From positions 119,989-183,988 of the forward strand of contig JAIUMU010000003.1 of the NCBI GenBank assembly GCA_022565355.1: a stretch of 64,000 nt of DNA, written 5' to 3'. The stretch's first letter is position 1. Every line of letters starts with the position of its first letter. Below, one piece after another: positions 4,216 to 34,721 of the stretch. This stretch comes from Idiomarina sp. (GTDB lineage: Bacteria; Pseudomonadota; Gammaproteobacteria; Enterobacterales; Alteromonadaceae). Both the position numbers and the translations under genes were made by a program. The notes under the pieces were generated by a model. It searched no databases and was not told the origin of the DNA. It saw only the letters and a program-made list of their open reading frames with translations.

Positions 4216-4233
4216 CTGATGGTAACTCAGCGT

Positions 4234-14654: not shown

Positions 14655-14696
14655 GCACCCGTAGCTCAGCTGGATAGAGCGCCGCCCTCCGGAGGC
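14655..14696 (+). pseudogene. truncated 5' half of tRNA-Arg(CCG)
   Basis: 42 nt identical to positions 1-42 of the intact tRNA at 14749 (acceptor 5' strand, D arm, anticodon stem-loop). It then diverges (aacggtcaattg). Confidence 0.85.
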
Positions 14697-14748
14697 AACG
14701 GTCAATTGCAAAATGAGTGTTTGAGGCAAAAGTCAGATTTCAAGATAT

Positions 14749-14825
14749 GCACCCGTAGCTCAGCTGGATAGAGCGCCGCCCTCCGGAGGCGGAGGCCAGA
14801 GGTTCGAATCCTCTCGGGTGCGCCA
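14749..14825 (+). tRNA. tRNA-Arg (anticodon CCG), CCA encoded
   Basis: Cloverleaf readable by eye: acceptor GCACCCG/CGGGTGC, anticodon stem CCGCC/GGCGG with loop CT-CCG-GA, T arm AGAGG-TTCGAAT-CCTCT. Close to E. coli argX. Confidence 0.95.
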
Positions 14826-15472: not shown

Positions 15473-16072
15473 ATGAGCGAGGTAACTATCAATTTAGTAT
15501 GTGAAACTATTTTTACTGGTATTCCGAGCAACCTAATTCAAAAGGCAGAGCCAGCAGATGCTACACATCATATGATCACGGGTTCATCTCTGAATCATGC
15601 CGGTGAGTTAGTTGAGGAAGCTCTTCAACCTGTCCAACTTAAAGACGAAAAATCGGCAACAAAGTTTCTCCTGAAGGAAGGTGATGTCGTGGTATTAACC
15701 CGCGGCAATTCATTTCGGGCTGCAATCGTCGACTCGAAAATCGTAAAGCTTAAACTGATACCTTCGGCTAATTTGGTGATTTTACGCCCTAACGCTTCGA
15801 AGGCAAAGCCAGCGGTGCTGGTCACTCACTTGAACTCTGCACTTGGTCAATCCCAAATGGAGCAGCTTGCTACAGGCACCACCATCAAGAATATACCCGC
15901 GAGCAAGCTAAAGGAACTGCGGTTTAAATTACCGAGCTTAGGAACACAGGGTCAAATTGACAGCTTGTTTTTTGCAAGTAACCAAGCCTATACCGCTGGC
16001 ATTGCAATGGTTGAGCAAGAGCGTAAAGTAGCGATGGCGAAGGTGAACGAGTTAATGCAAGGAGGCGCATAA
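15473..16072 (+). CDS. half-size HsdS-like specificity protein (single target-recognition domain)
   Basis: 199 aa with GGAGG RBS. One TRD-like region, then a conserved S-subunit helical motif (KLPSLGTQGQIDSLF...). Directly precedes an M-like gene with a 1-nt gap. Confidence 0.6.
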   Translation: MSEVTINLVCETIFTGIPSNLIQKAEPADATHHMITGSSLNHAGELVEEALQPVQLKDEKSATKFLLKEGDVVVLTRGNSFRAAIVDSKIVKLKLIPSANLVILRPNASKAKPAVLVTHLNSALGQSQMEQLATGTTIKNIPASKLKELRFKLPSLGTQGQIDSLFFASNQAYTAGIAMVEQERKVAMAKVNELMQGGA

Positions 16073-16073
16073 C

Positions 16074-17336
16074 ATGGCTATCAATTTCAACCAACAATTA
16101 GGGAAGTTAATAGATCAAGCGCGAGGTGAGTTTAAAGAAGAGCAAGCCTTATCACTGATTACGATTTTACTTTACATCAAGTCAAAAGATGCGAATGCCA
16201 TTGACGTGCTTCAGCGTATGGGGCTCGCGAATCAAAGAGCGGCGCTGAGAGATTTGCTTGCCACTTACTCAGAAGCAAGCAGCCACTCAGCTACACGAGC
16301 CATTGATTACGCAAATAACGAAGCGATTGCAGCCTTAATTTCGTTCGTTGCAAACATAGAAAATATAGGCCTTGCGAGCCAGGCTATGCGCGCCGCATTC
16401 CCAAACTCTCGGTCAATAACCGAGCACGTTTCTAACGCAAATGAAGTTAACCTGATACGTAGCCTGGTAAAGCCGAAGAAAACCGATAAAGTATTAGACC
16501 CAGCGGGGGGCATAGGCAATCTTTTATTATCATTGCCGAAAGCCAACATTGAGTTGCAAGAGCTTAACGCTGACACAGCAAGCATTTGCCAGATGCTTGC
16601 AAGTATTGAGAGCAAAGACATCCGCATTCACACAGGTAATAGCCTTGTTCAGCCGGCTTTTAAAGAAGCTAGTGCGGATTATGTGGTTATGACCCCGCCA
16701 CTTGGACTTCGGTTTGGCCGCGAACAAATCGACAAAATAAAGTCAGCTCCCTATTTACTGCCGCAAGAATCACAAACGTCCATTCCCATGACCGCTGGCG
16801 ATAGCCTGTGGCTTCAGTTAGCTTTATGGGCTTTAAACGACACCGGCAAAGGTTATGTATTTTTACCTAAAGGTTGGCTGTTCAGAGGCGGTTACGATGC
16901 CCAGGTGCGCGAGTACTTTGTCGAGAATGAGCTGATTGAAGCCGTTGTCCAAATGCCGAACAAGTTCTTCAGCCACACAGCTATTGCGCCCGTGTTACTT
17001 ATCCTCAATAAAGCAAAGGAAAAAGGCACCTCCGTTCGCTTTATCGACGCTGAAGCGACACAAAGTGACGCGGGCCTCGATTACCATTTAAGCTCGGACT
17101 ATATTGCCGAAATTGTGGGACTCATTACCGCCACCGAAATAGATGACCCAAGAGTCATCGAAAAATACGCACCAGACATACGCGAGCAAGACATGATTCT
17201 CGCCGTAAACCGGTACATTACGCCGCCAACGCATATTGAAGACATCAATTTCGAAGCAGAGTCTGCGAAATTAAAACAACTAGAAAGCACCTATGCAGAA
17301 GCCAAGCGCCAACTTAGCGCCCTGCTCGACAACTAA
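16074..17336 (+). CDS. N6-adenine DNA methyltransferase-like protein with non-canonical catalytic motif
   Basis: AdoMet motif I is VLDPAGGIGNLL. Motif IV reads VVMTPPLG (TPPL at 16692-16703) rather than (D/N/S)PP(Y/F/W). At 420 aa it is shorter than the canonical HsdM next door. Confidence 0.65.
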   Translation: MAINFNQQLGKLIDQARGEFKEEQALSLITILLYIKSKDANAIDVLQRMGLANQRAALRDLLATYSEASSHSATRAIDYANNEAIAALISFVANIENIGLASQAMRAAFPNSRSITEHVSNANEVNLIRSLVKPKKTDKVLDPAGGIGNLLLSLPKANIELQELNADTASICQMLASIESKDIRIHTGNSLVQPAFKEASADYVVMTPPLGLRFGREQIDKIKSAPYLLPQESQTSIPMTAGDSLWLQLALWALNDTGKGYVFLPKGWLFRGGYDAQVREYFVENELIEAVVQMPNKFFSHTAIAPVLLILNKAKEKGTSVRFIDAEATQSDAGLDYHLSSDYIAEIVGLITATEIDDPRVIEKYAPDIREQDMILAVNRYITPPTHIEDINFEAESAKLKQLESTYAEAKRQLSALLDN

Positions 17337-17347
17337 TTTAGGAGGAA

Positions 17348-19768
17348 ATGAACATGGATTACAGTGTACACAACAAACTTATTTCATTTATTTGGGGTAT
17401 CGCCGACGACTGCTTGCGAGACGTGTATGTTCGCGGAAAATACCGCGATGTTATTCTACCCATGGTAGTACTGCGCCGTTTAGATACATTGCTCGAGCCA
17501 AACAAAGATGCTGTATTAGAAGAAGTTAGATTCCAAAAAGAAGAAATGGGCGCAACGGAGCTGGATGATGCACCATTAATAGAAGCCAGTGGCTACGTGT
17601 TTTACAATACGTCTAAATGGACGCTTAAATCGCTGTTGAATACCGCCACGAACAACCAACAAATCCTACTTGCTAACTTCGAAGAGTATTTACTTGGTTT
17701 CAGTGACAATGTTAAAGAAATCATCGAGTGCTTTAACCTGCAGTCGCAAACTCGCCATATGGCGGCAAAGCAAGTCTTACTCGATGTAGTTGAGAAGTTT
17801 GTTTCGCCTTACATCAACTTAACGCCGGAAGCCGCTGAAGATCCTGACGGTAACAAAATGCCAGCCCTCACTAACCTCGGCATGGGCTATGTGTTTGAAG
17901 AGTTGATTCGGAAGTTCAACGAAGAAAACAATGAAGAGGCTGGGGAGCACTTTACTCCACGCGAAGTAATCGAGCTGATGACGCACATGGTCTTTGATCC
18001 GGTTAAAGACCAACTTCCACTTACCATGACTGTGTACGACCCCGCGTGTGGAAGTGGGGGCATGCTCACTGAGTCGCAAAACTTTATTGAAGAAAAATAC
18101 CCGAACGAAAGTCGTGATATTTACCTCTATGGTAAAGAAATCAACGATGAAACCTATGCGATTTGTAAATCGGACATGATGATTAAAGGCAACAACCCCG
18201 AGAACATTCGAGTGGGTTCAACTTTATCTACCGACGAGTTCGCGTCTTCACGATTTGATTTCATGCTCTCTAACCCTCCGTATGGCAAAAGCTGGGCGTC
18301 TGAACAAAAGCATATTAAAGACGGGGGCGATGTTATCGACCCACGGTTTAAAGTAACCCTCACCGATTACTGGGGTAACCGAGAGGAAGTAGACGCAACC
18401 CCGCGCTCTAGTGACGGCCAATTGCTGTTTCTGATGGAAATGGTCAGCAAAATGAAAAACCCATCGGAAAGTCCATTGGGTAGCCGCATTGCATCCGTTC
18501 ACAACGGTTCTTCATTGTTTACTGGCGATGCCGGCGGTGGTGAGAGTAATATACGCCGCTTCATTATTGAGAACGATATGCTGGAAGCAATTGTTCAGTT
18601 GCCGAATAACCTGTTCTACAACACCGGTATTACCACCTATATTTGGGTGCTGAACAATCACAAACCAGAAAACCGAAAAGGTAAAGTGCAGTTGATTGAT
18701 GCCAGCTTGCTCTATCGTAAGCTGCGCAAGAACCTTGGTAATAAAAATTGCGAATTCGCACCAGAGCACATCACTGAAATTACAGACACCTATCTGGCCT
18801 GCAGCGCTATCGAGCGGAAGCTAGACGAGAACAACGATCCAATCGGCATTGCAAGCCAAGTATTCAGCAACCAAGACTTTGGTTATTACAAAGTAACCAT
18901 TGAACGGCCAGATCGTCGCAAAGCCAGGTTTACTTCTGACGCTATTGCACCGCTCCGCTTTGACAAGCAACTAAGTAAAGTAATGACGCACCTGTATTCC
19001 GAGTATGGTGAGAGCGTTTATGAAACATCAGGATATGGTCCTTGCGGTAACAAGAGCTTTTTGCAGTCTATCGATAAAGAAATTTTGAGCTGGTGTGAAG
19101 ACAACGACATTAGCTTAAACGCAAAAGCTAAAACGAAACTTCTCGATGTAAAATACTGGTTAAAGCTCCAATCCTTACTAGAGGCTGCTGAGCAGCTGAT
19201 GGCGAATATCGGTCAAGAAGAGTTCGATGACTTTAACCATTTCAAAGTACTTTTCGATAAGGCATTAAAAGCATTGGGGATAAAGCTTTCTTCGCCGGAA
19301 AAGAACGCTATTCTAAATGCCGTCAGTTGGTATGACGAAAGCGCTCAGAAAGTCATAAAGAAATTACAGAAACTCAGCGGCGATAAACTCGATGCGTTGA
19401 TCACGCGTTATGACTGCCAAGTTGAAGATTTATCGCAGTACGGCTATTTTCCGACAGGTAAGCAAAACGAGTTTATCACCTATGAAACCAATGGTGATTT
19501 GCGCGATACCGAATCTGTAACGCTGGGGCAAAGCATCTACCAATACTTCCTTGATGAAGTGAAACCTCACGTGGATGAAGCCTGGATTAATCTCGATAGC
19601 GTAAAAATTGGTTACGAAATTAGTTTCAATAAATATTTCTACCGTCACAAACCGCTGCGTAGTTTAGAAGAGGTCGCAACTGACATCATCAACCTAGAAC
19701 AAAAAGCCGAAGGACTCATTGCACAGATACTGGGCGTGAAAGTGGCTGAAGTTCAGGGAGAATCGTAA
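17348..19768 (+). CDS. hsdM: type I restriction-modification methyltransferase subunit M
   Basis: HsdM N-terminal helix (FIWGIADDCLRD...), motif I YDPACGSGGML, motif IV LSNPPYG. The start may be the second ATG at 17354, which has better spacing to TAGGAGG. Confidence 0.9.
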   Translation: MNMDYSVHNKLISFIWGIADDCLRDVYVRGKYRDVILPMVVLRRLDTLLEPNKDAVLEEVRFQKEEMGATELDDAPLIEASGYVFYNTSKWTLKSLLNTATNNQQILLANFEEYLLGFSDNVKEIIECFNLQSQTRHMAAKQVLLDVVEKFVSPYINLTPEAAEDPDGNKMPALTNLGMGYVFEELIRKFNEENNEEAGEHFTPREVIELMTHMVFDPVKDQLPLTMTVYDPACGSGGMLTESQNFIEEKYPNESRDIYLYGKEINDETYAICKSDMMIKGNNPENIRVGSTLSTDEFASSRFDFMLSNPPYGKSWASEQKHIKDGGDVIDPRFKVTLTDYWGNREEVDATPRSSDGQLLFLMEMVSKMKNPSESPLGSRIASVHNGSSLFTGDAGGGESNIRRFIIENDMLEAIVQLPNNLFYNTGITTYIWVLNNHKPENRKGKVQLIDASLLYRKLRKNLGNKNCEFAPEHITEITDTYLACSAIERKLDENNDPIGIASQVFSNQDFGYYKVTIERPDRRKARFTSDAIAPLRFDKQLSKVMTHLYSEYGESVYETSGYGPCGNKSFLQSIDKEILSWCEDNDISLNAKAKTKLLDVKYWLKLQSLLEAAEQLMANIGQEEFDDFNHFKVLFDKALKALGIKLSSPEKNAILNAVSWYDESAQKVIKKLQKLSGDKLDALITRYDCQVEDLSQYGYFPTGKQNEFITYETNGDLRDTESVTLGQSIYQYFLDEVKPHVDEAWINLDSVKIGYEISFNKYFYRHKPLRSLEEVATDIINLEQKAEGLIAQILGVKVAEVQGES

Positions 19769-21096
19769 TGGAAAGTTTAGCGTTGATGCCGAAATATGAG
19801 GCTTATAAAGATTCTGGTATTGACTGGATAGAACAAATTCCGGAGGGTTGGGGGGTCGCAAGAATTAAAAACTACGCTGATGTCTTTAGTGGTGATAGTT
19901 TAAATGATAAACAAAAATCTCAGTATGAATCCGAAGATTTACGTCATCGCCCGTATATTTCTTCAAAGGATATAGATTTAAATTATTCCAAAATTAACTA
20001 TCTGAATGGGCTACGCATTCCTAAAGGGAGTAGCCATAAAGTTTGTCCATCGAACTCAACTTTAATGTGTATTGAGGGGGGGAGCGCGGGTAAGAAGATT
20101 GCATATACCAATCGAGATGTTTGCTTTGTTAATAAGCTGGCTTGCTTTGCTGCAAATAAAGGCATTGATAGTCATTTCCTTTATTACTATCTATGTAGTG
20201 TTACCTTTAAGAATCAGTTTTTTAACGCAATGACAGGTTTGATTGGTGGGGTTTCAATCTCATCAATTAAGAATTTTTGTCTTTTATTGCCTTCGACAAT
20301 TGAACAAGCAACGATTGTTAGCTTTCTCAATAAAAAAATATCCCAAATAGATGAAAGTATTGTGGCTAAAGAGCTGCAAATTAGCCTGCTAAAAGAGCGT
20401 AAGCAAATCATTATCCGTCAAGCCGTGACGCAAGGGCTTAATTCCAATGTGCCAATGAGAGACTCTGGTGTGGATTGGATAGGTCAAATTCCTGAGCGTT
20501 GGGAGATCATTCGGTTTAAAAATTTGTTTTCACAAAGCAGGCTGCCTGTTCGGAAAGAAGATGAAGTAGTCACTTCGTATCGAGATGGACAGGTCACTCT
20601 TCGTTCTAATCGGCGATTGGAAGGTTACACAGAGGCCATTATTGAGGGGGGCTATCAGGGGATTCGAAAGGGGCAGCTCGTTCTAAACTCTATGGATGCA
20701 TTTGAAGGCGCTATAGGAGTATCTGAATCTGATGGTAAGTGTACACCAGAATACGTAATTTGTGACCCAATTCGAACAGGAATATCTCAACATTATTTTG
20801 CATATTTGCTTCGTGAAATGGCATTGGCGAAGTACATCCAAGTTATCTGCAATGCAGTTAGGCAGCGTGCTGTCAGGATTCGATTTAATAATCTGGCTTC
20901 TAGGCTTATGGTACTTCCTCCAGAGGCTGAGCAGGAACAAATTGTCGAATTTATAGAGGCTGAAAAGAGTAAAATTGATAAAGGAATTGAATCTCTTCAA
21001 TTTCAAATTGAAAAACTCAAAGAATACAAAACCACCCTGATCAACAGCGCCGTGACAGGAAAAATAAAGATCACCCCAGAAATGGTTGAGCAATAG
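19768..21096 (+). CDS. hsdS: type I restriction-modification specificity subunit S (two TRDs)
   Basis: 442 aa. Two TRD-like halves are separated by conserved helical repeats (LLKERKQ..., EKLKEYKTTLINSAVTGKI). TAATG overlap with the hsdM stop. Confidence 0.9.
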   Translation: MESLALMPKYEAYKDSGIDWIEQIPEGWGVARIKNYADVFSGDSLNDKQKSQYESEDLRHRPYISSKDIDLNYSKINYLNGLRIPKGSSHKVCPSNSTLMCIEGGSAGKKIAYTNRDVCFVNKLACFAANKGIDSHFLYYYLCSVTFKNQFFNAMTGLIGGVSISSIKNFCLLLPSTIEQATIVSFLNKKISQIDESIVAKELQISLLKERKQIIIRQAVTQGLNSNVPMRDSGVDWIGQIPERWEIIRFKNLFSQSRLPVRKEDEVVTSYRDGQVTLRSNRRLEGYTEAIIEGGYQGIRKGQLVLNSMDAFEGAIGVSESDGKCTPEYVICDPIRTGISQHYFAYLLREMALAKYIQVICNAVRQRAVRIRFNNLASRLMVLPPEAEQEQIVEFIEAEKSKIDKGIESLQFQIEKLKEYKTTLINSAVTGKIKITPEMVEQ

Positions 21097-21105
21097 GATA
21101 CGAAT

Positions 21106-21324
21106 ATGTTCACGGTAAATCATCAAACCAACAGAATCAGCCCAGTTACGACGAAAAAATTCAGTGAGTTGGATTTTTCCGAGCGCAAGCATCTTCAGGA
21201 ATGGTTAGCACACGAACCTTCCGCACTCGGTGAAGAGTTGTTGATTATTCAGAAGGAGTTCGATGGCTTTGATGACACCCGTGAGCAATTCCGTTTAACG
21301 ACTTTCTCTGAGGAGCATCTATGA
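21106..21324 (+). pseudogene. N-terminal stub of a NucS/DUF91-like PD-(D/E)xK protein
   Basis: 72 aa. FSERKHLQEWLAHEPSALGEELLIIQKEFDGFDDT matches the usual N-terminal region of such proteins. It ends before the expected (R)xDLL...ExK nuclease core. Confidence 0.4.
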
Positions 21325-22022
21325 CTATTTACAAAATATTTTGTGATGAAAGCTGTCACCTTGAACATGATAGCGCAAACATCATGGTACTTGGTGCAAT
21401 TCACTGCACTGCCGAGAAAGCTATTGCTATTACAAAGCACATGAAGTGGTTGCGCCACCAACACAATTACACCCCCGAATTGAAGTGGAACAAGCTTAAT
21501 AAACAACAATGGCCGTTGTATCGAGATTTGATTGATATGATTACGTCAGACACCGATGTGCGCTTTAAAGCAACTGTCGTACTGAACAAAAGTATTCTCG
21601 ATCACCACCAATACAATGCTGGGTCTCACAGCGACTTTTACTACAAGATGTTTTATTACACCCTCCGCGACTTTTTGAAAGAAGGTAATGAGTATCGCAT
21701 CTACCTCGATTACATGGATACGTTAGGTGCCGAGAAAACACGAAAACTTTGTGAAGTACTGCAGAATGGTACACGGTGGCAATTAAAAGCGGTTGCCAAT
21801 GTCGTTCAGTCTTACGAAGTGCAATTAATTCAGCTGTGCGACCTATTGATAGGAGCCGTAGCGTACCGAAACCGCGACGACATTGAGCATAAAAGTGCCA
21901 TCAAAATGCAGTTTGTGGATTATTTAGAGTCAAAATTAGGTTACACATTGAATAACGGCACCCCACCTTGGGAGGAGCAATTTAATATTTTTCGCTTCCA
22001 ACCACGGAGGCATTATGCTTAG
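21321..22022 (+). CDS. DUF3800-like protein
   Basis: 233 aa. N-terminal IFCDESCH acidic motif and C-terminal LIQLCDLLIGAVAY motif, as in DUF3800. ATGA overlap with the upstream stub. Confidence 0.65.
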   Translation: MTIYKIFCDESCHLEHDSANIMVLGAIHCTAEKAIAITKHMKWLRHQHNYTPELKWNKLNKQQWPLYRDLIDMITSDTDVRFKATVVLNKSILDHHQYNAGSHSDFYYKMFYYTLRDFLKEGNEYRIYLDYMDTLGAEKTRKLCEVLQNGTRWQLKAVANVVQSYEVQLIQLCDLLIGAVAYRNRDDIEHKSAIKMQFVDYLESKLGYTLNNGTPPWEEQFNIFRFQPRRHYA

Positions 22023-22557
22023 TGAACCAATTGATTTAAGTAAGATCGATGCGACAAAAATTATTGACGTGCTCTACGGCTTCTTTCATCGCGATTTTGT
22101 TGCTGAGCGAACCTATTTAGCAAATAACATTTATATTAATCCGCGAAGCCATCGAAAAGACGAAGGAAAAGAGCTGGATTTCTGGCATTTAACCACGCGT
22201 GAAGATAAGGAACAGGTTTGGGAGAATGGCCAGCGAGTGACGAGATCAAATGGTCGCTACCCTGATTATGATCGAGGAAGTCGAATCGAATGGGTCAAGT
22301 TGATTCTTACGAACCATGCTCATGAGTCAATTAAGTTGTTTTATCACCGAGAAACTAATCGTAAACGTAGTATTCGTTTGTACTTGTGGGCATCTGATGA
22401 AGACTTTGTGGTGATACTACAAAAGTTGGGACGCGCGGATTCGTTCTTGGTTACGAGTTTCTTCGTTGACCACGATGGAAAGCGAAAAGACTTTGAGGAG
22501 AGGTTCCAGAATTACCTAGGCGGAGATCCCGACTTACAAGACTGTGAGTGGTTTTAA
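22015..22557 (+). CDS. hypothetical protein, translationally coupled to the DUF3800-like gene
   Basis: 180 aa with an 8-nt overlap with the preceding gene. I recognise no family. Basic, with an FWHLTTRED...RIEWVKLIL...IRLYLWA core. Confidence 0.6.
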   Translation: MLSEPIDLSKIDATKIIDVLYGFFHRDFVAERTYLANNIYINPRSHRKDEGKELDFWHLTTREDKEQVWENGQRVTRSNGRYPDYDRGSRIEWVKLILTNHAHESIKLFYHRETNRKRSIRLYLWASDEDFVVILQKLGRADSFLVTSFFVDHDGKRKDFEERFQNYLGGDPDLQDCEWF

Positions 22558-22875
22558 GATAGTGTAATAGAAAGGCAAAAGGAATGGTCGCCTATTGTAG
22601 ACCGGGCGATACGGTCACCTCTTTCTACTTAATAGTAGGTGAGCGCGTGAATTATGGCCTAAATCAGAGTAAGTTGTCAATGTTTATTGCCGCAGCGTTT
22701 CTTTGACCGGTGCTTGACTGAGCAAACTTTTATTTTATACAAAACTTTATAAATCAATATCTTGGTGCCGCGCATTTGTTTGACTGTAAGACACTGGTGC
22801 TGTAGATCACTAAGTAATCAAGCACGACGAGCGAGCGGTGATGTTTGGCTTTTGGAAATCAATTAGAGGGATATT

Positions 22876-25800
22876 ATGGTTAGTAAAACGAACGAACAAG
22901 CGCTAGAGGCGGCAATCGAGAAAAGTCTGACCGGTACTTGTTTAGAGGAACTGAGTGCGGGTGTGCAATTTGCTGAGCCTGACTATATCGGTGCGTTTTA
23001 CAAAATTGGCCAAGCCTCTGACTTTAACAGCCAATATGCTCTCGATGAGCGTTACTTTTGGGCGTTTCTCGAAAAAACACAAGAGCCCGAGCTCGAAAAA
23101 CTTAAGCGCAACAACCCGACAGACTGGCAACGAAAACTGCTTGAACGGTACGACCGCCTAATCAAAAAGCATGGTGTTCTGCACCTGCTCAAAAAAGGTT
23201 TAAGTGTTGATGATGCGCATTTTAATCTGCTTTACCCAGCGCCGTTAGCCAGCAGCAGTGAGAAGGTGAAGCAGAACTTTTACGAGAACATTTTCAGTTG
23301 TACGCGTCAGGTTCGGTATTCTCACGCAAACCCGCTACAAGAGATTGACATGGTGCTGTTCATTAACGGCATCCCGCTGGTTACGTTAGAACTTAAAAAT
23401 GCTTGGACCGGACAAACAGCGCGATACCATGGTCAAAAGCAGTATCGCGACGACCGTGATACAACTCAGCCACTTTTGAACTTTGGTCGCTGTTTGGTTC
23501 ACATGGCTGTGGACACCGATGAAGTTTACATGACGACCAAGTTAGCAGGGAAAAGTACTTACTTCTTACCCTTCAATAAGGGTCATAACCTCGGTCAAGG
23601 TAACCCTCCTAATCCTAAGGGGCATAAGACCGCTTATTTGTGGGAGGAAGTGTTCAGCAAAAAAAGCCTCGCGAATATCATTCAGCATTTTGTGCGTCTT
23701 GACGGTTCCATTAAAGATCCGCTAGCAAAGCGAACGTTATTCTTCCCACGCTATCACCAACTGGACGTTGTAAGAAAGTTGGTTGCTCATGCTGCTACGC
23801 ATGGAGTTGGCCAAACTTATTTGATTCAGCACTCTGCTGGTTCGGGTAAATCCAACTCCATTACGTGGGCAGCATACCAACTCATAGAAACCTACCCTGC
23901 CTCTACAGAAGTAGCTGGTGGTAAAGGTCTCGACGAGCCTCTGTTTGATTCAGTAATTGTAGTGACCGACCGCCGCTTGCTTGATAAACAACTTCGCGAC
24001 AATATTCGCGAATTCTCTGAAGTTAAGAACATTATTGCGCCAGCTTTTAAATCATCGGAGCTAAAGAAAGCGCTAGAGAACGGCAAAAAAATAATCATAA
24101 CGACGATTCAAAAATTTCCGTTCATTATCGACGGCATTTCAGATCTCAGTGATAAGCGTTTTGCTGTCATCATTGATGAGGCCCATAGTTCTCAATCAGG
24201 CTCTGCTCACGACAATATGAACCGGGCTATTGGTAAAGCGGACGTAGAGGAAGCTGAAGACGCGCAGGATAAAATTCTGCAAGCAATGAAATCCCGTAAA
24301 ATGCGCGGAAATGCATCGTACCTAGCATTTACAGCAACACCTAAGAACACTACTTTGGAAAAGTTTGGCCAACGCCAAGAAGATGGTTCATTTAAGCCTT
24401 TCCATCTCTATTCAATGAAGCAGGCTATCGAGGAAGGGTTTATTCTCGATGTACTGAGCAATTACACAACCTATAAGAGCTATTACGAGATTGAGAAATC
24501 GATTGCTGAGAACCCTGAGTTCGATACCAAAAAGGCACAAAAGAAGCTAAGAGCCTATGTCGAGCGGAGCCAGCAAACGATCGATACCAAATCCCAAATT
24601 ATGCTCGAGCACTTTATCCCTCAAGTCGTAAATGCAAAAAAATTACGGGGTAAAGGCAAAGGCATGGTAGTGACGCAGAATATTGAGACTGCTATTCGTT
24701 ACTACCGGGCGATTAAGCACATTCTCGAAGAGCAAGGTAATCCGTTTAAAGTGCTTGTTGCCTTTTCCGGCACAAAAGAAGTAGACGGCATTGAATACAC
24801 AGAAGCTGATGTCAACGGCTTTGCAGAAACCGACACCAAAGACAAATTTGATACCGACGAATACCGGTTGCTTGTTGTCGCCAACAAGTACCTGACTGGT
24901 TTTGACCAACCAAAGCTGTGCGCGATGTACGTTGATAAAAAGCTCGCTGGTGTACTCTGCGTTCAGGCACTATCACGGCTTAACCGCAGTGCGCCAAAAC
25001 TGGGTAAAAAGACAGAGGATTTGTTTGTTCTCGACTTCTTTAATTCGGTTGATGACATTCAAGCAGCATTCGAGCCGTTCTATACTGCCACGTCATTAAC
25101 TCAAGCCACAGACATTAACGTACTTCATGAGCTTAAAGACAGCATGGACGATTCAGGTGTCTACGAATGGTATGAAGTTGAGGATTTTGTTACCCGTTAT
25201 TTTAATGAAGAAGACGCGCAAAGTTTAAGTCCGATTATCGACATTGCCGCTGCTCGCTTCAATCAAGAGTTGGAACTTGAGCACGAAGACAAGGTTGATT
25301 TCAAAATCAAAGCCAAGCAGTTCGTAAAAATATACGGTCAGATGGCTTCAATAATGCACTACGAAATAGTGGCTTGGGAGAAGCTGTTCTGGTTCTTAAA
25401 ATTCTTAATTCCGAAACTAAAAGTTCTAGATCCTGACGCTGATGCAATTGATGAGTTGCTCGAATCGGTAGATTTGAGCTCATATGGGCTACAACGAGTG
25501 AAGCTAAATAGTTCTATTAAGCTGAGCGATGATGAAACTGAGGTAGACCCACAAAATCCTAATCCACGCGGTGCGCACGGATCCGAAAAGGAGACGGACC
25601 AGCTAGACGAGATCATCCGCACATTCAATGACCGTTGGTTCCAAGGCTGGAGTGCAACGCCGGAAGAACAGCGCGTAAAATTTGTGAATATCGCGGAAAG
25701 TATTCGTCAACACCGGGATTTTGAGTCCAAGTACGCGAACAACCCTGACCCACACAATCGCGACTTGGCATTCCAAAAAATACTGAAAGAAATCATGCTA

Positions 25801-25902
25801 CAACGGCGCATGGACGAATTAGAGCTATATAAGCTGTTTGCAAATGACTCTGCGTTTAAAGCGTCGTGGACGCAGAGTATGCAGCGGATGGTTGAGGGTT
25901 GA
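22876..25902 (+). CDS. hsdR: type I restriction endonuclease subunit R
   Basis: 1008 aa. N-terminal PD-(D/E)xK motif (IDMVLFINGIPLVTLELKN), helicase motif I (SAGSGKS) and motif II (IIDEAHSSQ). Confidence 0.95.
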   Translation: MVSKTNEQALEAAIEKSLTGTCLEELSAGVQFAEPDYIGAFYKIGQASDFNSQYALDERYFWAFLEKTQEPELEKLKRNNPTDWQRKLLERYDRLIKKHGVLHLLKKGLSVDDAHFNLLYPAPLASSSEKVKQNFYENIFSCTRQVRYSHANPLQEIDMVLFINGIPLVTLELKNAWTGQTARYHGQKQYRDDRDTTQPLLNFGRCLVHMAVDTDEVYMTTKLAGKSTYFLPFNKGHNLGQGNPPNPKGHKTAYLWEEVFSKKSLANIIQHFVRLDGSIKDPLAKRTLFFPRYHQLDVVRKLVAHAATHGVGQTYLIQHSAGSGKSNSITWAAYQLIETYPASTEVAGGKGLDEPLFDSVIVVTDRRLLDKQLRDNIREFSEVKNIIAPAFKSSELKKALENGKKIIITTIQKFPFIIDGISDLSDKRFAVIIDEAHSSQSGSAHDNMNRAIGKADVEEAEDAQDKILQAMKSRKMRGNASYLAFTATPKNTTLEKFGQRQEDGSFKPFHLYSMKQAIEEGFILDVLSNYTTYKSYYEIEKSIAENPEFDTKKAQKKLRAYVERSQQTIDTKSQIMLEHFIPQVVNAKKLRGKGKGMVVTQNIETAIRYYRAIKHILEEQGNPFKVLVAFSGTKEVDGIEYTEADVNGFAETDTKDKFDTDEYRLLVVANKYLTGFDQPKLCAMYVDKKLAGVLCVQALSRLNRSAPKLGKKTEDLFVLDFFNSVDDIQAAFEPFYTATSLTQATDINVLHELKDSMDDSGVYEWYEVEDFVTRYFNEEDAQSLSPIIDIAAARFNQELELEHEDKVDFKIKAKQFVKIYGQMASIMHYEIVAWEKLFWFLKFLIPKLKVLDPDADAIDELLESVDLSSYGLQRVKLNSSIKLSDDETEVDPQNPNPRGAHGSEKETDQLDEIIRTFNDRWFQGWSATPEEQRVKFVNIAESIRQHRDFESKYANNPDPHNRDLAFQKILKEIMLQRRMDELELYKLFANDSAFKASWTQSMQRMVEG

Positions 25903-25915
25903 GCTGTTGGCTACC

Positions 25916-26599
25916 ATGAGTTTCGAGCTGAAATCACCTAATGATTTCCTTCAATTGCCGAGTGAGTCATTGAAAAAGCAAGATGATGAATTGAGAGCGA
26001 TTCAACGGCTGATGCGATTTGACCTAGGCTTGAGTTATCCGGTAACAATTATGAAGCGCGAACGCCCTGACTTCCAAATTACAGAATCTACCTTCCAGAA
26101 AAGCATGGGCATCGAGCATACATTAGTCACTAACGAAGGCTGGGAGCAGGCTTGTAGTGAGCTAAGCAAAAAGAAGAACTCCCAGTTAAGGTTAGTTTCT
26201 CGCAATTGGTTGCAAGACCATAACAAGAAGGGCCCTGAACTAGGTGAAGATATTGTTTCCAAACAGAAACACTCTCGTGTTTGGTGTGCTGGTGAAAGTG
26301 AAAATACTAAAGCTTGTGAAATCGTTCGGGCTATTCAAAGAAAAGCAGATAAGCTCAGCAGCGGAAGTTACACAACTTACGATCAAAACTGGCTTCTACT
26401 TGTCGATTCATGGCCGTTTTTCTCAATTAGAACATCTGCGTTTGAAGACACATTGCTCAAGGATGAAGTTTGGGCTAACTCGCAATTCGACCGAGTTCTT
26501 TTTCTATGCAAAATGAAAACTGATGCTATCAACTTGTTTGAAGATAGTGTTGTAGAGCTTTCTAAGTCAGGCATAACTCAACTAAATACGAGCACTTAA
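25916..26599 (+). CDS. hypothetical protein
   Basis: 227 aa from ATG 25916 (MSFELKS...). The track start at 25838 overlaps the hsdR 3' end. RERPDFQI...GIEHT hints at a restriction-endonuclease-like fold, but this is unverified. Confidence 0.55.
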   Translation: MSFELKSPNDFLQLPSESLKKQDDELRAIQRLMRFDLGLSYPVTIMKRERPDFQITESTFQKSMGIEHTLVTNEGWEQACSELSKKKNSQLRLVSRNWLQDHNKKGPELGEDIVSKQKHSRVWCAGESENTKACEIVRAIQRKADKLSSGSYTTYDQNWLLLVDSWPFFSIRTSAFEDTLLKDEVWANSQFDRVLFLCKMKTDAINLFEDSVVELSKSGITQLNTST

Positions 26600-26617
26600 A
26601 CCCCAGGAGTAACCGGT

Positions 26618-27523
26618 TTGCCAAAATGTAAGATTCATGTCTATGCAGAAAATGATTTCAAAAATTATGAGGATGAAATCGACAGCGAGCGACTTACGAA
26701 ATTAGCTAACGGAAAAATAAACCTCATTCGGTTTCTCGAGCTCTTTGAAATATACGAGCAGTTACTTGATGCTCACATAGAAGCAAAGAGCGTTTTTTAC
26801 AAGCTGAACATCAAATCAAGGCTAAAGGCCGAGGATACTGCGCAATATTTTCATACGACGAGAAATGAGCTGAACAGACGCCTATTTAATACGCTTAACC
26901 TTGGCAAGCTCTATCTCGACAAGCATTTTTTCAAGAACAAATCTTTTGTATTTAAAGTTACACAAAGCGCAGAAAAGCATCAAAAGGTTCAAGAGCATCG
27001 TCAAGGTTGATTTCAGCGCAGTATGCATTACATGATTGGATGCGAACTTCGCCGCTTTAGCCAGCATGTTTCCATCATGACACGCATCATCTCAAGAGGA
27101 ATAAAATTTGACCAGGACTCAGGCGGCCTTACTTCGACTTTAAATGCGTCGATATTAAGAGAAGAGCTGTGTGAAGGAGTAGATCTTTCCAAAGAGAAAC
27201 TAGAAAGAACACCTGAAAGAATAAATCTTCACGAAACTTTAGACGGTTACATTGATGCTATATCTGCGATGCACTTTGTTAATCTAGAACTTACCGAGGA
27301 TACATTTGCGAATCTAATTGAACTATTAGATGGCTTTGCTCAGTCAGCATGCCAAAATTTGAACTTAAGCAGCGCTGAGGGATATGCGCTAGAAGTAAAT
27401 TCAGAGGACCGACGCAATTCAGCCGGACAACTCACCTTTGAAATCAGGGATTACAGGGAAATAAATTATTTCAGAAATGCTCGGCAGCAAAGAACCGAGT
27501 TACTATTGAAGTATCAAGTGTAG
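26618..27523 (+). pseudogene. HEPN-like (Rx4H) gene interrupted by one in-frame TGA
   Basis: ORFs 26618..27010 and 27023..27523 are in the same frame, separated only by TGA at 27008-27010. A candidate HEPN motif ELRRFSQH lies just after the stop. Confidence 0.45.
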
Positions 27524-28193: not shown

Positions 28194-28427
28194 ATGGAAA
28201 ACACTTACCTGACTACTGAGGAATTATCCAAGCGCATCAAATATGATGCTCGCACCATTCGCGAACGCCTTAAAGATTCGGTTCTACTAGAGGGTATTCA
28301 CTATATACGGCCGTTTGGAGGAAGAAAAATCCTCTATGTTTGGGAGGCTATCCAAAAAGATATAGGAAAAGCTTCAACGTCGTCGTATTCAATTCCAATG
28401 GCACGCGGAGGTTTAGCTCATGGGTAG
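28194..28427 (+). CDS. excisionase/AlpA-like DNA-binding protein
   Basis: 77 aa with an HTH-like TTEELSKRIKYDARTIRERL. Overlaps the integrase start by 8 nt. Confidence 0.6.
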   Translation: MENTYLTTEELSKRIKYDARTIRERLKDSVLLEGIHYIRPFGGRKILYVWEAIQKDIGKASTSSYSIPMARGGLAHG

Positions 28428-29616
28428 AATTTACACTCGAAAAGAAACGAATAAATTAGTTATCGACTTTTCGTTCAAAAATAAGCGCTGCCGAGAGCAA
28501 ACAGCGCTTACCGACACAAAAGCTAACCGAAAAAAAGTTGAGCGTTTCTTGGAAACTATTGAGGCTGAAATCACGCTTGGTACATTCGACTATGCCAAGC
28601 ACTTTCCAAATAGTCCTCGTGTTGAGCAATTCAGGGCAATGCAAGCACACTCAAGGTTTGTGGATACACCGCTCTTCGCGAATTTCGCTCAGCAATGGTT
28701 TAGCGAAATGTTGATTCAGTGGCGAACTTCACATTCAGACACAGTACAAAACTCGATGACCAAATACTTAATTCCCACATTTGGGGGCAAAGAAGTTGGC
28801 CGCATCACCAAAGCGGATATTTTGGAGTTCCGGACCTCTCTCGCCAAAGTTAGAACCCGGAGCAACCAATCATTATCACCGTCGCGGATAAACCACATCA
28901 TGACGCCATTGCGCATGATTTTGAATGAAGCAGCCAACCGCTTTAATTTTAGCTCACCTTACCAGGGAATTAAATCACTTAAAGTTCCACGTACTGATGT
29001 TGAGCCATTTGGCCTTGATGAAGTGCAGCTTATTATCAACTCGGTACGGCCTGACTTTCGCAACTACTATACCGTGCGTTTTTTTACTGGCATGCGAACC
29101 GGCGAGATTGATGGCCTGCAGTGGGATGCTGTCGACTTCAATCGTCGACAAATTATGGTCAAGAGAACGATTGTTAATGGCGAAGTCCAGTACACTAAAA
29201 ATGATGGCTCTTTTCGGGCGATTGAAATGAGTCAGCTCGTATTTGATGCCCTTAAGCGTCAATACGATGCCACCGGTAATCAGTCCTATGTGTTCTGCAC
29301 GCGAACCGGCACGCCACTTTCCCATAACAACGTGACGAAGCGCGTCTGGTATCCCCTACTCCGTCATTTGGGTATTCCAAAACGCCGTCCCTACCAAACG
29401 CGTCATACGGCAGCCACGTTGTGGCTCGCTGCAGGGGAAAGCCCTGAGTGGATAGCTCGTCAGATGGGGCACACGACGACTGAAATGCTGTTTCGCGTCT
29501 ATTCACGCTATGTGCCGAATCTAACACGCCAGGACGGCTCTGCCTTTGAGCGACTTCTAAAGGAGAACTTTGATTGCGCTCACCACCAGAAAAAGGAGCG
29601 GACTGATGATGCTTAA
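28420..29616 (+). CDS. tyrosine site-specific integrase
   Basis: 398 aa with an arm-binding-like N-terminus. Catalytic residues: TGMRTGE (Arg), RHTAATLW (HxxR), GHTTTEMLFRVYSRY (His...Tyr). Confidence 0.9.
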   Translation: MGRIYTRKETNKLVIDFSFKNKRCREQTALTDTKANRKKVERFLETIEAEITLGTFDYAKHFPNSPRVEQFRAMQAHSRFVDTPLFANFAQQWFSEMLIQWRTSHSDTVQNSMTKYLIPTFGGKEVGRITKADILEFRTSLAKVRTRSNQSLSPSRINHIMTPLRMILNEAANRFNFSSPYQGIKSLKVPRTDVEPFGLDEVQLIINSVRPDFRNYYTVRFFTGMRTGEIDGLQWDAVDFNRRQIMVKRTIVNGEVQYTKNDGSFRAIEMSQLVFDALKRQYDATGNQSYVFCTRTGTPLSHNNVTKRVWYPLLRHLGIPKRRPYQTRHTAATLWLAAGESPEWIARQMGHTTTEMLFRVYSRYVPNLTRQDGSAFERLLKENFDCAHHQKKERTDDA

Positions 29617-32472: not shown

Positions 32473-34721
32473 TAGAGCGAGACGCACTAAAGAATGCCAT
32501 GCACGAGGAGTTTGACATTTTACCCTCGCATGAAATGTCAACTTACGCATCGCGTATGATTCGATTTTTACGCGCCCTTTCATCGCTTGCGTATATGAGT
32601 GCATACCAATCAAACGCATACCAGAAATACGCTGATGCGCTCAGCGAGGAGTCTGAATCAACAATTAATTTGCGATTCTCGCGCCGCGAGCTCTACAACA
32701 GCCTCACTAATGCGCCATTTTTTTCTACGCTGTTGCTACTCGATTGTGACGATAACGCATGTTCGTATTACTTGTTATTGGCGCATCTATACTGCGCACG
32801 CGCTTACAGTGAATATCGGCCCTACCTGCGTTTCTATCAGGCACTCTTATCTCGACATGCCAATGCTCTAATTATCTCAGTCGGCGCCCTAAAAACCTAC
32901 ACGCTCGACGAACTGCGCCTCGTGCTTACATCGCTCGCGGAGCAAAAGGATGATTCAAAACTGCGTGACCTCGCCAGTTTCTTGCGTCCACCCAAGCCGG
33001 CTAATGAAAAGAAAGGGCCCAGCATGCTGAGTACTTCGAATCACTCAGAACGACCCATTCATTCCGATAGCGAGGGCGCCCTGAAGTACGTCGAAGTATC
33101 CACTGATACTGGCGAGACCATAGGCTCGTTTTTAGACTGGACCCCACATTTACAAAAAACACAAGAACAAGAGCGGGCGCGTTTCAAGCGGGCCAAAGGT
33201 GGTTTGAAAAATGCGCTTTACCATGCCGAGTCACCTGCCGTTTGGTCATCGATGGCCGCGACACCGTTTGAACTCACACGCCTACTATCTTGCACCGACG
33301 CGGCTTTTATTGACTCAGATGTCGGCGCATTTGCAAAAGAGAGCGCCCCAATTTTTGTCATTTTGTTTTTACGCTTACTCGGCTTATCTGAGCCCGGTGA
33401 GTTAATGCTGATAAACGCGGGCTCCCCGCGATATCAGCCAACGACACAGCCAAATACGCTTGTTTACCATATCGACAAAACGACGAGTCGTATAGACGCG
33501 CATGTCATTCTAAACGCAGAACTACTGAACGTTGCTAAACCTAACACCAGTGATTCTCGCGTGCATTATAGCGCCCAGTCGTACATAGAAATTTCGCTCC
33601 CACATCCGATCCCGCTATTACTAAAAGCGGCATTTGTAAACGTCACCGCAACGCAGCGAAATCATCGGACGTTATTCGAGGCACTCCACCTCAACAAAAA
33701 AGCATATCGTTCAAAACTACGTGCATATATTAAAAATGCTGCTCTGCATGAAACGGGGGTGTCCATCGCAGGTGTCGAGAGAGCATTTTTTCATTACGCG
33801 AAAGAGCAACTGCCAGAGGTTGTATTTAATTTCCTGAGTGGGCGAAGCAGCGTGCAGCACCATTATATCTCTATAGAGAGGGCAACTATCGAAACCGAAC
33901 TAAGGGCGGCATGGTTTAATTTTCTTGATGATGCTCACATCGTACGGCCAAGTAGTGATAGCGATAACACAGTTTTTGGCGCCTATCAGGATTATCATGA
34001 CGAGGTGGGTTCAGCGAATACGTTACGAAATGAGTCATTCATCGCCATGCTGAGTCATTACAGTGGGCTAGTACAAGATAGTAACCTCAGTAATTTGGCT
34101 CGACAGAACTTTTGCAGCCTCTATTTGTATCTCAGAGTAGCGTCAACTGTCGGGCTGCGACCGGTTCGCGAGCCGCTTCCTGAATGGTCTGCCGTCGAAC
34201 CATCCCTGGGTGTTTTCAGCGTCGCCGACAAACGCGTTCATCATAGTGACGAGCGCCGCCTCATCGTCCTACCGCTGAGATTGAATGCCCTCCTACGCCA
34301 TTGGTCAAAAGCGGTTCACGTTATATCGATGGATCTAAACCTACCAGCACCTCATGCGCCCCTCATGCATTACTGTCAGGAACATCAAGGTTGGCAGTAT
34401 TTGAGTGCACGTTATGTAAATTCGCTATTGCAGAGGGATTTCCAGGAAGACCTCCACAATCGGAGTTTTCGCCATGTCGCCGCATCAAAGAATCTGCACA
34501 CCTTATTAGCAAACGGGAAATTTACTCAATCGGCTTTTAATTTGTTGATGAATCATGCCCGCGGCGGCGTATCGACCATGAACCAGCGCACTCTTGTCAG
34601 CATAGCGACCATGGTGCGGCAGCAACGCGCAATGATTGAATATAGTGAGACCGATGCAGTCATCGTTGATTTCGATGAACGTGTCATGGCCGTATTGCAG
34701 GAGTTGGCTTATGGGATTTGA
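32469..34721 (+). CDS. large (750 aa) tyrosine-recombinase-like protein, catalytic motifs partly degenerate
   Basis: GLRPVRE (box I Arg-like) and RSFRHVAAS (HxxR-like). An NHARGG segment follows without an obvious catalytic Tyr. Translationally coupled on both sides. Confidence 0.5.
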   Translation: MIERDALKNAMHEEFDILPSHEMSTYASRMIRFLRALSSLAYMSAYQSNAYQKYADALSEESESTINLRFSRRELYNSLTNAPFFSTLLLLDCDDNACSYYLLLAHLYCARAYSEYRPYLRFYQALLSRHANALIISVGALKTYTLDELRLVLTSLAEQKDDSKLRDLASFLRPPKPANEKKGPSMLSTSNHSERPIHSDSEGALKYVEVSTDTGETIGSFLDWTPHLQKTQEQERARFKRAKGGLKNALYHAESPAVWSSMAATPFELTRLLSCTDAAFIDSDVGAFAKESAPIFVILFLRLLGLSEPGELMLINAGSPRYQPTTQPNTLVYHIDKTTSRIDAHVILNAELLNVAKPNTSDSRVHYSAQSYIEISLPHPIPLLLKAAFVNVTATQRNHRTLFEALHLNKKAYRSKLRAYIKNAALHETGVSIAGVERAFFHYAKEQLPEVVFNFLSGRSSVQHHYISIERATIETELRAAWFNFLDDAHIVRPSSDSDNTVFGAYQDYHDEVGSANTLRNESFIAMLSHYSGLVQDSNLSNLARQNFCSLYLYLRVASTVGLRPVREPLPEWSAVEPSLGVFSVADKRVHHSDERRLIVLPLRLNALLRHWSKAVHVISMDLNLPAPHAPLMHYCQEHQGWQYLSARYVNSLLQRDFQEDLHNRSFRHVAASKNLHTLLANGKFTQSAFNLLMNHARGGVSTMNQRTLVSIATMVRQQRAMIEYSETDAVIVDFDERVMAVLQELAYGI

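Follow-up and report, generated by a model that had tools for sequence, protein, structure and literature searches.

The 64-kb window of Idiomarina sp. analyzed here (contig JAIUMU010000003.1; all coordinates are positions in this window) carries a type I restriction-modification (R-M) operon, in which hsdM, hsdS and hsdR are all present and intact, as judged by Pfam matches and open reading frame (ORF) lengths. Between the hsdS stop codon at 21096 and the hsdR start codon at 22876 lie three more ORFs, namely a truncated gene, a gene coding for a DUF3800 protein and a gene coding for its partner, followed by a spacer of 318 bp. The end of the truncated gene and the start of the DUF3800 ORF overlap by ATGA, and the DUF3800 ORF and the partner ORF overlap by 8 nt. 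The ORF list and the sequence confirmed the three ORFs, the overlaps and the gap exactly as the initial annotation of the region had placed them. Our analysis identifies the two complete genes as homologues of phage P1 rlfA and rlfB, and locates a predicted small RNA gene in the spacer; this identity and the three-part anatomy of the module are, in our view, highly probable.

The product of the first complete gene, RlfA, had been annotated as DUF3800-like. This was confirmed by a match to the Pfam family DUF3800 (PF12686) above its curated cut-off (E=1.3e-11, 45.9 bits against a cut-off of 21, profile positions 2-148 of 149). The protein also matched the PADLOC PDC-M04A model PDLC04353 (E=3.1e-82, positions 1-229 of 232) and phage P1 RlfA (39% identity, E=2e-53). 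The 180-aa product of the second gene, RlfB, had been reported to belong to no family that could be named. None was indeed found in Pfam or NCBIfam, but the protein is a full-length match to the PADLOC PDC-M04B model PDLC04360 (E=6.5e-65, positions 1-166 of 166) and is related to P1 RlfB (28% identity, E=1e-12). Many of its homologues are named 'RlfB protein' in NCBI records, and a database search returned an identical protein from an Idiomarina sp. metagenome-assembled genome (MAG). P1 RlfA and RlfB themselves match PDC-M04A and PDC-M04B, and the names rlfA-rlfB and rapA-rapB are already used in the deposited P1 and P7 genome records. On the strength of these alignments, the pair is the homologue of rlfA-rlfB of phage P1 (rapA-rapB of P7) and a member of the catalogued PADLOC candidate PDC-M04, and is not new.

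The PDC systems are 145 'phage defence candidates', which are predictions obtained from genes nested in BREX, DISARM and type I R-M systems ('guilt-by-embedding'; Payne et al. preprint 10.1101/2024.01.29.577857). The supplement lists the cassette, with a count of 679, as 'Assign as candidate PDC-M04', and, in the view of the authors, most of the genes nested in systems of this kind act in defence and are not mobile-element or housekeeping genes (10.1101/2024.01.29.577857). The pair had been proposed in the initial annotation as a candidate for a novel module. It turned out to be catalogued already, because the reasoning behind that proposal, embedding in an R-M operon, is the reasoning of the authors of the PADLOC list. 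The accompanying remark that the pair is not a characterized defence system agrees with the literature, which yielded no experimental characterization and no functional study of RlfAB or PDC-M04; the term 'PDC-M04' was found in no main text, and rlfA and rlfB were found only in P1 annotation tables.

The conservation of the pair was analyzed in a comparison set of 52 genomic loci encoding an RlfB relative. An RlfA/DUF3800 ORF is located directly upstream from rlfB, on the same strand, in 50 of these loci; the remaining two carry RlfB fragments. Examination of the gene neighbourhoods therefore supports the tightly coupled two-gene unit of the initial annotation, and the maintenance of both proteins as an adjacent pair in 50/52 loci, from many phyla, indicates that the ORFs are more than chance. 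The nesting in type I R-M operons was also found to recur: R-M genes flank the pair on both sides in at least 18 of the 52 loci and on one side or more in at least 22, numbers that are lower bounds since many contigs are short. The R-M-flanked pairs come from Gammaproteobacteria, Betaproteobacteria, Campylobacterota, Nitrospirae, Dehalococcoidia and a Woesearchaeota MAG. Most bacterial rlfAB copies have no replicon genes alongside. In the Haemophilus influenzae locus (L027, 8001-8542) rlfB is split into two ORFs, probably through a frameshift or as a pseudogene.

The AlphaFold model of RlfA (pLDDT 87.9) was compared with PDB structures. The top 21 matches were all RNase HII/H2 enzymes, with a best E of 1.5e-5, probabilities of 0.99-1.0 and TM scores of about 0.45-0.5. 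Residues D9, E10, D130, D133, Q171 and D174 are invariant among 58 homologues; they include an N-terminal DE motif (D9-E10) and a C-terminal QxxD motif (Q171, D174), the two DUF3800 motifs cited by Mestre 2020. An RNase H-like fold has been reported for other DUF3800 proteins (Mestre 2020; Altae-Tran 2023), with which RlfA agrees. RNase HII and RNase H2A, the best structural matches, have a comparable set of acidic residues but share merely 10-16% sequence identity with RlfA, and RlfA, unlike RNase HII, has the QxxD motif and extra helices and requires RlfB as a partner. According to the model, RlfA has an RNase HII fold, its acidic residues are conserved, and it is a predicted nuclease.

The model of RlfB (pLDDT 93.4) had no significant fold match in the PDB, the best having E=0.055. 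HigB/BrnT-type RNase toxins recurred among the weak matches (E 0.07-0.6, TM 0.2-0.4), which were too weak to use. Profile searches found no match for RlfB in PDB sequences, Pfam or NCBIfam, and a structure search of BFVD returned one uncharacterized phage protein. The initial annotation would have reclassified the pair as an ordinary toxin-antitoxin (TA) system if the 180-aa protein had belonged to a known family of toxins or antitoxins; none was found for it in these profile and structure searches. RlfB proteins form a moderately large family, with 820 clusters at 50% identity in a library of 1.84 billion proteins. Contrary to its earlier description as a small basic protein, RlfB has a pI of 5.98, with 28 K+R residues against 32 D+E. 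The overlapping genes and the structural model together describe RlfB as the translationally coupled partner of RlfA, with a predicted fold that has no known relative.

The 318-bp spacer had been described as non-coding. Its length is correct, but the comparison of loci points to a conserved small RNA gene inside it, about 65-80 nt long, on the minus strand at about 22568-22646, and what had been called a two-gene module accordingly acquires a third part. In a blastn search with the spacer, the segment at about 22580-22657 showed 95-97% DNA identity in loci where RlfB is just 64-74% identical, and 25 loci retained a recognisable form of the element. By inspection and with a regular expression, the same RNA architecture was identified 3' of rlfB in 51 of the 52 loci and in P1 and P7. 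A covariance model gave one match per locus, always past rlfB, and none elsewhere in 744 kb. With the filters off, the sole match of the RNA-strand model in the 64-kb window was at 22584-22645 on the minus strand (84.3 bits, E=2e-25). The small RNA lies outside the rlfB coding sequence and its 5' start is about 90 nt from the rlfB stop codon. No tandem repeats were found in 20900-23000; the small RNA is single-copy, downstream and convergent. In one locus (L015) an insertion of about 180 nt (8543-8726) separates rlfB from the small RNA.

From 5' to 3', the RNA is composed of a hairpin closed by CUC/GAG, the linker GAAAGAGGU, an H-type pseudoknot with the stems GACCG/CGGUC and UCGCC/GGCGA, and a U-rich tail. 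The minus strand was chosen as the transcribed strand because of a promoter at a fixed distance, the U-tract, the pattern of G.U pairs, the pseudoknot loops, and the co-orientation with tRNAs and phage genes. In the window, the minus-strand promoter consists of a -35 box TTGACA (22675-22680), an 18-nt spacer and a -10 box CATAAT (22651-22656), with a predicted start at about 22644-22646. Minus-strand promoters with at least 9 of 12 consensus positions were found in 42 of 51 loci, compared with 22% of shuffled sequences and, for the opposite strand of that segment, 11 of 51. In about 38 loci there are 7-10 nt between the end of the -10 box and the conserved GCUCA. Distant loci and P1 also have a U-tract past the hairpin on the minus strand.

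The pairing pattern points to the same strand. The UCGCC/GGCGA stem interleaves with the hairpin, and the pseudoknot loops of 2 and 7 nt are feasible solely in the minus-strand orientation. At one pair of this stem, 16 sequences have U.G, 14 have C-G and 2 have U-A, where the plus strand would give 16 C.A mismatches; in two alignments, 16-20 C.A 'mismatches' of the plus strand are G.U pairs on the minus strand. In phage arrays the element is co-oriented with the tRNAs and occupies a tRNA-sized slot; in other viral contigs the genes on either side of it point the same way as the element. The plus-strand RNA, which would form the 3' untranslated region of rlfAB (our first model, R1), pairs well, yet it was rejected as the transcribed strand.

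The structure was evaluated in two sets of sequences. In a plain MAFFT alignment of 32 sequences, 97.2% of the cells were paired and 9 of the 18 pairs showed compensatory changes; none of 500 shuffles reached the observed pairing, and slid versions of the structure gave 30-49%. Among 66 distinct viral and metagenomic copies, 95.3% of the cells were paired in the hairpin stem and 97.1% in the pseudoknot stem, the latter not fitted by the model, with compensatory changes at 5/5 pairs in each stem; for the whole structure, 0/500 shuffles matched. The CUC/GAG helix and the linker GAA(A/G)GAGGU are invariant, and only short loops vary in the RNA. This invariance suggests a sequence-specific recognition.

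The linker GAAAGAGGUGA (22619-22631, minus-strand RNA) resembles a strong Shine-Dalgarno sequence, its GAGGUGA being complementary to the 3' end of 16S rRNA. No conserved start codon was found after the linker, some nucleotides of which are predicted to base-pair with the 5' CUC.

No Rfam 15 family was found at the small RNA, at E<=10 in the window and at E<=0.1 in the phage tRNA-array loci; Rfam 15 includes DUF3800-I and DUF3800-IX, and the comparison extends to the Weinberg motifs II-VIII, X and XI as far as any of these is in Rfam. The possibility that the element is a tRNA was discarded, since ARAGORN calls no tRNA there. In a Chloracidobacterium MAG (L053), an Rfam DUF3800-IX RNA occurs at 1483-1545 on the minus strand (56 bits against a gathering score of 36.8), about 50 nt beyond the rlfAB small RNA, so that two different small RNAs stand in tandem by one DUF3800 gene. 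The rlfAB-RNA module of an Armatimonadetes MAG (L043) is followed, after a few hundred bases, by a tRNA gene and a c-di-AMP riboswitch (92 bits) at 4222-4526, which are probably unrelated neighbours.

Copies of the RNA outside rlfAB loci were sought with the RNA core pattern alone in viral contigs and metagenomes. The viral contigs yielded 33 loci, of which 32 were confirmed by the model, and rlfAB adjoins the RNA in only one of the 33. Several of these copies lie within tRNA arrays, and at least eight closely follow a tRNA-Met gene: in L060, L068, L069, L070, L072, L074, L077 and L087 the stand-alone RNA is found 0-100 nt downstream of tRNA-Met(CAT). In L059, L070 and L085 it takes up a gap in a dense row of tRNA genes, as though it underwent tRNA-like processing. 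A blastn search with the RNA against cultured phage genomes gave no match. Among the matches listed for the metagenomes there were 96 distinct copies: 41 had the end of rlfB within 300 nt on the convergent strand, 12 were beside co-oriented tRNAs, 32 had neither context and 11 were too near a contig end. The association is thus one-sided, rlfAB being accompanied by the RNA in 51/52 loci and the RNA by rlfAB about half the time among the matches listed. Such an asymmetry would be expected of an antidote or ligand RNA that can exist alone.

The truncated gene upstream from rlfA matched the PADLOC candidate PDC-S11 at profile positions 1-64 of 375 (E=2e-30) and no Pfam or NCBIfam family. The stub resembles the first 61 or so residues of the full-length relatives and diverges just before their 'DLLALD...IENK' motif. 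This agrees with the initial description of the ORF as the N-terminus of a PD-(D/E)xK protein that stops before the nuclease core. The stub carries neither the catalytic motif nor DUF4268; the full-length PDC-S11 protein matches DUF4268 (E=1e-38) and, weakly and below threshold, NucS_C and PDDEXK_4.

The initial annotation had also suggested that the pair replaced the truncated nuclease gene, and this proved wrong. A full-length PDC-S11 gene (382-403 aa) stands between hsdS and rlfA in L003, L005 and L006, the three closest relatives for which the sequence reaches far enough. Compared with L005, about 1.0 kb is absent from the window: by blastn, 21106-21286 aligns with the 5' end of the PDC-S11 gene and the sequence from 21330 onward with rlfA, leaving a 43-nt junction (21287-21329) without homologue. 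An insertion of rlfAB into PDC-S11 that disrupted it was ruled out, the intact gene and rlfAB occurring in the same order in all three relatives. From this comparison the stub is identified as a deletion remnant of a neighbouring embedded candidate; two embedded candidates were therefore once adjacent, and one of them decayed without being replaced by rlfAB. Aliidiomarina quisquiliarum (L004, 7017-7298) has a shorter PDC-S11 remnant, with deletion end-points unlike those of the window, which keeps the 'RLDLLALD' motif and about 30 nt of the 3' end of the gene. The two remnants suggest that PDC-S11 decayed independently, or stepwise, in L004 and in the window.

The features of the locus and its surroundings are listed in Table 1.

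Table 1. Features of the rlfAB locus and of the flanking island in the 64-kb window.
Feature	Coordinates	Strand	Description
tRNA-Arg(CCG) with partial duplicate of its 5' half	14749-14825 (tRNA); 14657-14825 (whole region)		duplicate ~90 nt upstream of the tRNA gene
specificity-like gene and N6-adenine methyltransferase gene	15473-17336	+	199 aa and 420 aa
hsdM	17348..19768	+	806 aa methyltransferase; Pfam N6_Mtase E=5.7e-60, HsdM_N E=7e-21
hsdS	19768..21096	+	442 aa type I specificity subunit; Pfam Methylase_S E=6e-12
PDC-S11 remnant	21106..21324	+	72 aa; PADLOC PDC-S11 E=2e-30
rlfA homologue (DUF3800 / PDC-M04A)	21321..22022	+	233 aa; predicted RNase HII-fold nuclease
rlfB homologue (PDC-M04B)	22015..22557	+	180 aa; obligate partner, orphan fold
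small RNA gene (predicted)	22568..22646 (approx.)	-	convergent with rlfB; core model match 22584-22645
predicted sigma-70 promoter of small RNA	22651..22680	-	11/12 consensus matches
rest of spacer	22681..22875	.	unconserved; no similarity to relatives' spacers past ~22660-22680 (blastn); probably hsdR promoter and leader
hsdR	22876..25902	+	1008 aa; Pfam HSDR_N, SWI2_SNF2, ResIII, T1R_D3-like
three ORFs between hsdR and integrase	25838-27523		253, 130 and 166 aa
tyrosine integrase gene	28420-29616		13.6 kb downstream of tRNA-Arg
second integrase-like ORF	34636-37593		

The whole R-M locus is situated shortly past the tRNA-Arg gene. This gene, its truncated copy and the tyrosine integrase gene place the R-M/rlfAB locus in an integrative island; with the second integrase-like ORF further downstream, there are possibly two tandem islands instead of one. 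The two genes directly 5' of hsdM, on the same strand, code for a specificity-like protein with a single target-recognition domain and for an N6-adenine methyltransferase without the HsdM N-terminal domain. They gave weak PADLOC matches to MADS mad5 and mad2 and also to type I S and M models, and may be an extra methylase-specificity pair or a piece of a larger composite system. Among the three ORFs past hsdR, the first (253 aa) shares 65 nt with the end of hsdR; the 253- and 130-aa ORFs had no match in Pfam, NCBIfam or PADLOC, and the 166-aa ORF, scanned against Pfam only, had none there. These ORFs could be further island cargo. A 40-aa ORF at 22584-22706 on the plus strand was judged spurious, because it overlies the RNA gene and is not conserved.

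Among the closest known counterparts of the module is the P1 pair (rapA-rapB in P7), which has the same gene order, the overlap of start and stop codons, and the small-RNA core with its convergent promoter after rlfB. The P1 equivalent of the RNA maps to about 52911-52978 of AF234173, on the opposite strand to rlfB. The P1 context is kilA-repL-[C1 operator]-rlfA-rlfB, so that the P1 pair follows repL behind the C1 operator, whereas the pair in the window is in an R-M operon. P1 RlfB has 154 aa and is without a segment of about 12 residues present in RlfB of the window, and the P1 RNA has a simple terminator hairpin where the RNA of the window has the pseudoknot. PADLOC PDC-M04, as in the window, is formed by A followed by B on the same strand, embedded in type I R-M, but is defined without the small RNA.

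Parallels were also found among systems in which a nuclease or a DUF3800 protein is linked to an RNA. By analogy, type III TA systems such as ToxIN would share the proposed logic, in which a nuclease is held by an adjacent pseudoknotted RNA and phages carry look-alikes, as in the escape of a phage through pseudo-ToxI (PMC3475682). They have, however, tandem RNA repeats upstream of the toxin gene and one protein, whereas rlfAB has two proteins and a single downstream convergent RNA with its own promoter. No ToxN, AbiQ, CptN or TenpN family match was found for the ORFs of the window in Pfam, NCBIfam or PADLOC. The DUF3800-associated motifs of Weinberg et al. 2017 (PMC5737381) are, as here, small structured RNAs near the gene, on either strand and often with a terminator. 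Type VII retrons also have a DUF3800 protein beside a non-coding RNA, together with a reverse transcriptase; no reverse transcriptase domain was found in the flanking ORFs scanned around rlfAB, and the neighbours are hsdS and hsdR. PrrC and RloC occupy the same niche among R-M subunit genes and embody the same idea of a back-up suicide nuclease; they are anticodon nucleases, and PrrC is a single ABC-ATPase-nuclease protein without RNA partner, unlike rlfAB. The ORFs of the stub, RlfA and RlfB had no PrrC or RloC match, and PADLOC gave only PDC candidates.

These comparisons lead us to propose the following mechanism. RlfA and RlfB would together make up a nuclease which, when free, is toxic or restricts phages. 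The small RNA would bind RlfA/RlfB and either restrain the nuclease, like the RNA antitoxin of a type III TA system, or set its specificity. Infection, or loss of the locus, would upset the balance and release the nuclease, and phages with stand-alone copies of the RNA, some in tRNA arrays, may use them as antidotes. The nesting in the R-M operon would provide a second defence line that travels with the first. Phage-encoded pseudo-ToxI RNA is known to neutralise ToxIN (PMC3475682), and DUF3800 genes associate with 11 different RNA motifs (PMC5737381). In Legionella transposon sequencing (Tn-seq) a strain-specific DUF3800 gene scored as essential, and 4 of the 14 strain-specific essential genes in the list were antitoxins or probable antitoxins. 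The genomic setting also speaks for defence, with R-M genes on both sides of the pair in 18 of the 52 loci, a definition of PDC-M04 from embedded cassettes, PDC-S11 next to the pair in relatives, and the tRNA-Arg and integrase genes of the window. Taken as a whole, the reading of the locus as an rlfAB cassette with its own small RNA, nested in an intact type I R-M operon and working as an RNA-restrained defence nuclease, seems to us slightly favoured. The RNA-restrained-nuclease mechanism, taken separately, is a tentative proposal that carries considerable doubt. It is rather doubtful that the module stands for an unrecognised class of protein-RNA TA or abortive-infection systems, with an RNase H-fold effector and stand-alone phage RNAs as antidote.

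Several observations weigh against a defence nuclease held by RNA. In the literature, no experiment on anti-phage activity, toxicity or RNA binding of PDC-M04/RlfAB was found, and RlfB gave no functional clue in the searches of PDB folds, PDB sequences, Pfam and BFVD. The P1 pair lies behind a C1-controlled operator by repL and is induced early in lytic growth, which is not the classic expression of a prophage defence gene. The RNA departs from type III TA in being single-copy, downstream and convergent. Its transcription is a prediction, made from promoter and conservation, and in many sequences the outermost pair of its 5' hairpin, U.G on the plus strand, becomes C.A on the RNA strand. Roughly half of the copies of the RNA are without rlfAB, an independent life that the model explains by assumption only. 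Finally, the Legionella gene is identified only as a DUF3800 gene.

Alternatively, rlfAB could be a nucleic-acid-processing accessory of mobile elements, and not a defence system, its presence in R-M operons being due to hitch-hiking in mobile islands. It would then carry out an RNase H-type removal of RNA primers or R-loops during replication of the element, or the maturation or turnover of the small RNA. Such a role agrees with the place of the pair after kilA and repL, with the induction of rlfA/B early in lytic growth, together with the replication genes, in P1vir, with the RNase HII-like fold of RlfA, and with the presence of the RNA in phage tRNA arrays, where RNAs get processed; a note in the P1 record, which is annotation only, reads 'possibly associated with lytic replication'. 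P1 rlfA and rlfB are, however, non-essential for lytic growth by CRISPR interference (CRISPRi), their slot is variable in P1-like plasmids, with other cargo found in its place, and most bacterial copies are without neighbouring replicon genes. The precise nesting between hsdS and hsdR in at least 18 loci, from distant phyla, also speaks for defence, if the argument of Payne et al. on embedded genes is followed. We consider an accessory role unlikely.

The convergent position of the RNA, beginning about 90 nt from the rlfB stop codon, is also what would be seen if it were merely a cis antisense regulator or a bidirectional terminator of the rlfAB transcript, in the style of a type I TA system, and not a protein ligand. 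U-rich sequence follows the hairpin on both strands, with a terminator-like site on the plus strand at 22600-22616, and the RNA has its own predicted promoter. Against this, the stand-alone copies in phage tRNA arrays and in other phage contexts have no rlfAB to regulate, and the RNA does not overlap the rlfB coding sequence. The compensatory changes in the pseudoknot and the 5' hairpin, together with the invariant linker and CUC/GAG, point to a structure-specific role in trans. A purely cis-acting RNA is therefore improbable.

A quite improbable alternative is that the module comprises the two proteins only, in line with its PADLOC definition, and that the element is a passenger, for instance a phage-derived RNA gene or an attachment or recombination site at the end of the cassette. 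The absence of rlfAB beside the element in about half of the cases among the matches listed could be understood in this way, but not its retention by P1 and by 51/52 loci in a constant position and orientation, in phyla whose flanking genes differ. The stem covariation and the G.U patterns also indicate selection on a folded single strand and not on a duplex DNA site, and the conserved promoter indicates selection for expression. It is also quite improbable that the RNA guides or templates the RNase H-fold protein as in a programmable nuclease (compare the omega RNA of TnpB/IscB and the retron msr-msd): an RNase H-like fold does stand beside a structured RNA, and DUF3800 is fused or linked to type VII retron reverse transcriptases and to Cas12a2/Cas12a3 and Cas13 loci, but the RNA, about 62-80 nt and conserved end to end, has no variable segment of guide length, the locus has no reverse transcriptase or CRISPR array, and near-identical RNAs occur in unrelated genomes, which argues against target-specific guides.

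The two-gene pair alone adds little, being an ordinary member of a catalogued candidate (PDC-M04, equivalent to P1 rlfAB). What the present analysis adds is the correction concerning the PDC-S11 stub, the link to P1 rlfAB and the small RNA, which we did not find described. The small RNA turns a pair of 'DUF plus hypothetical' proteins into a testable protein-RNA system, for which P1, being genetically tractable, offers a concrete model in E. coli, and it illustrates how RNA components can escape catalogues of candidate defence systems that list proteins alone. The finding bears on the question of why DUF3800 genes adjoin many unrelated small RNAs (Weinberg 2017), and on the recruitment of DUF3800 to retrons and to Cas12a2/a3 and Cas13 loci. 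If the module does represent a TA or abortive-infection class in which a nuclease is restrained by its RNA, it would give the first functional handle on the link between DUF3800 proteins and small RNAs.

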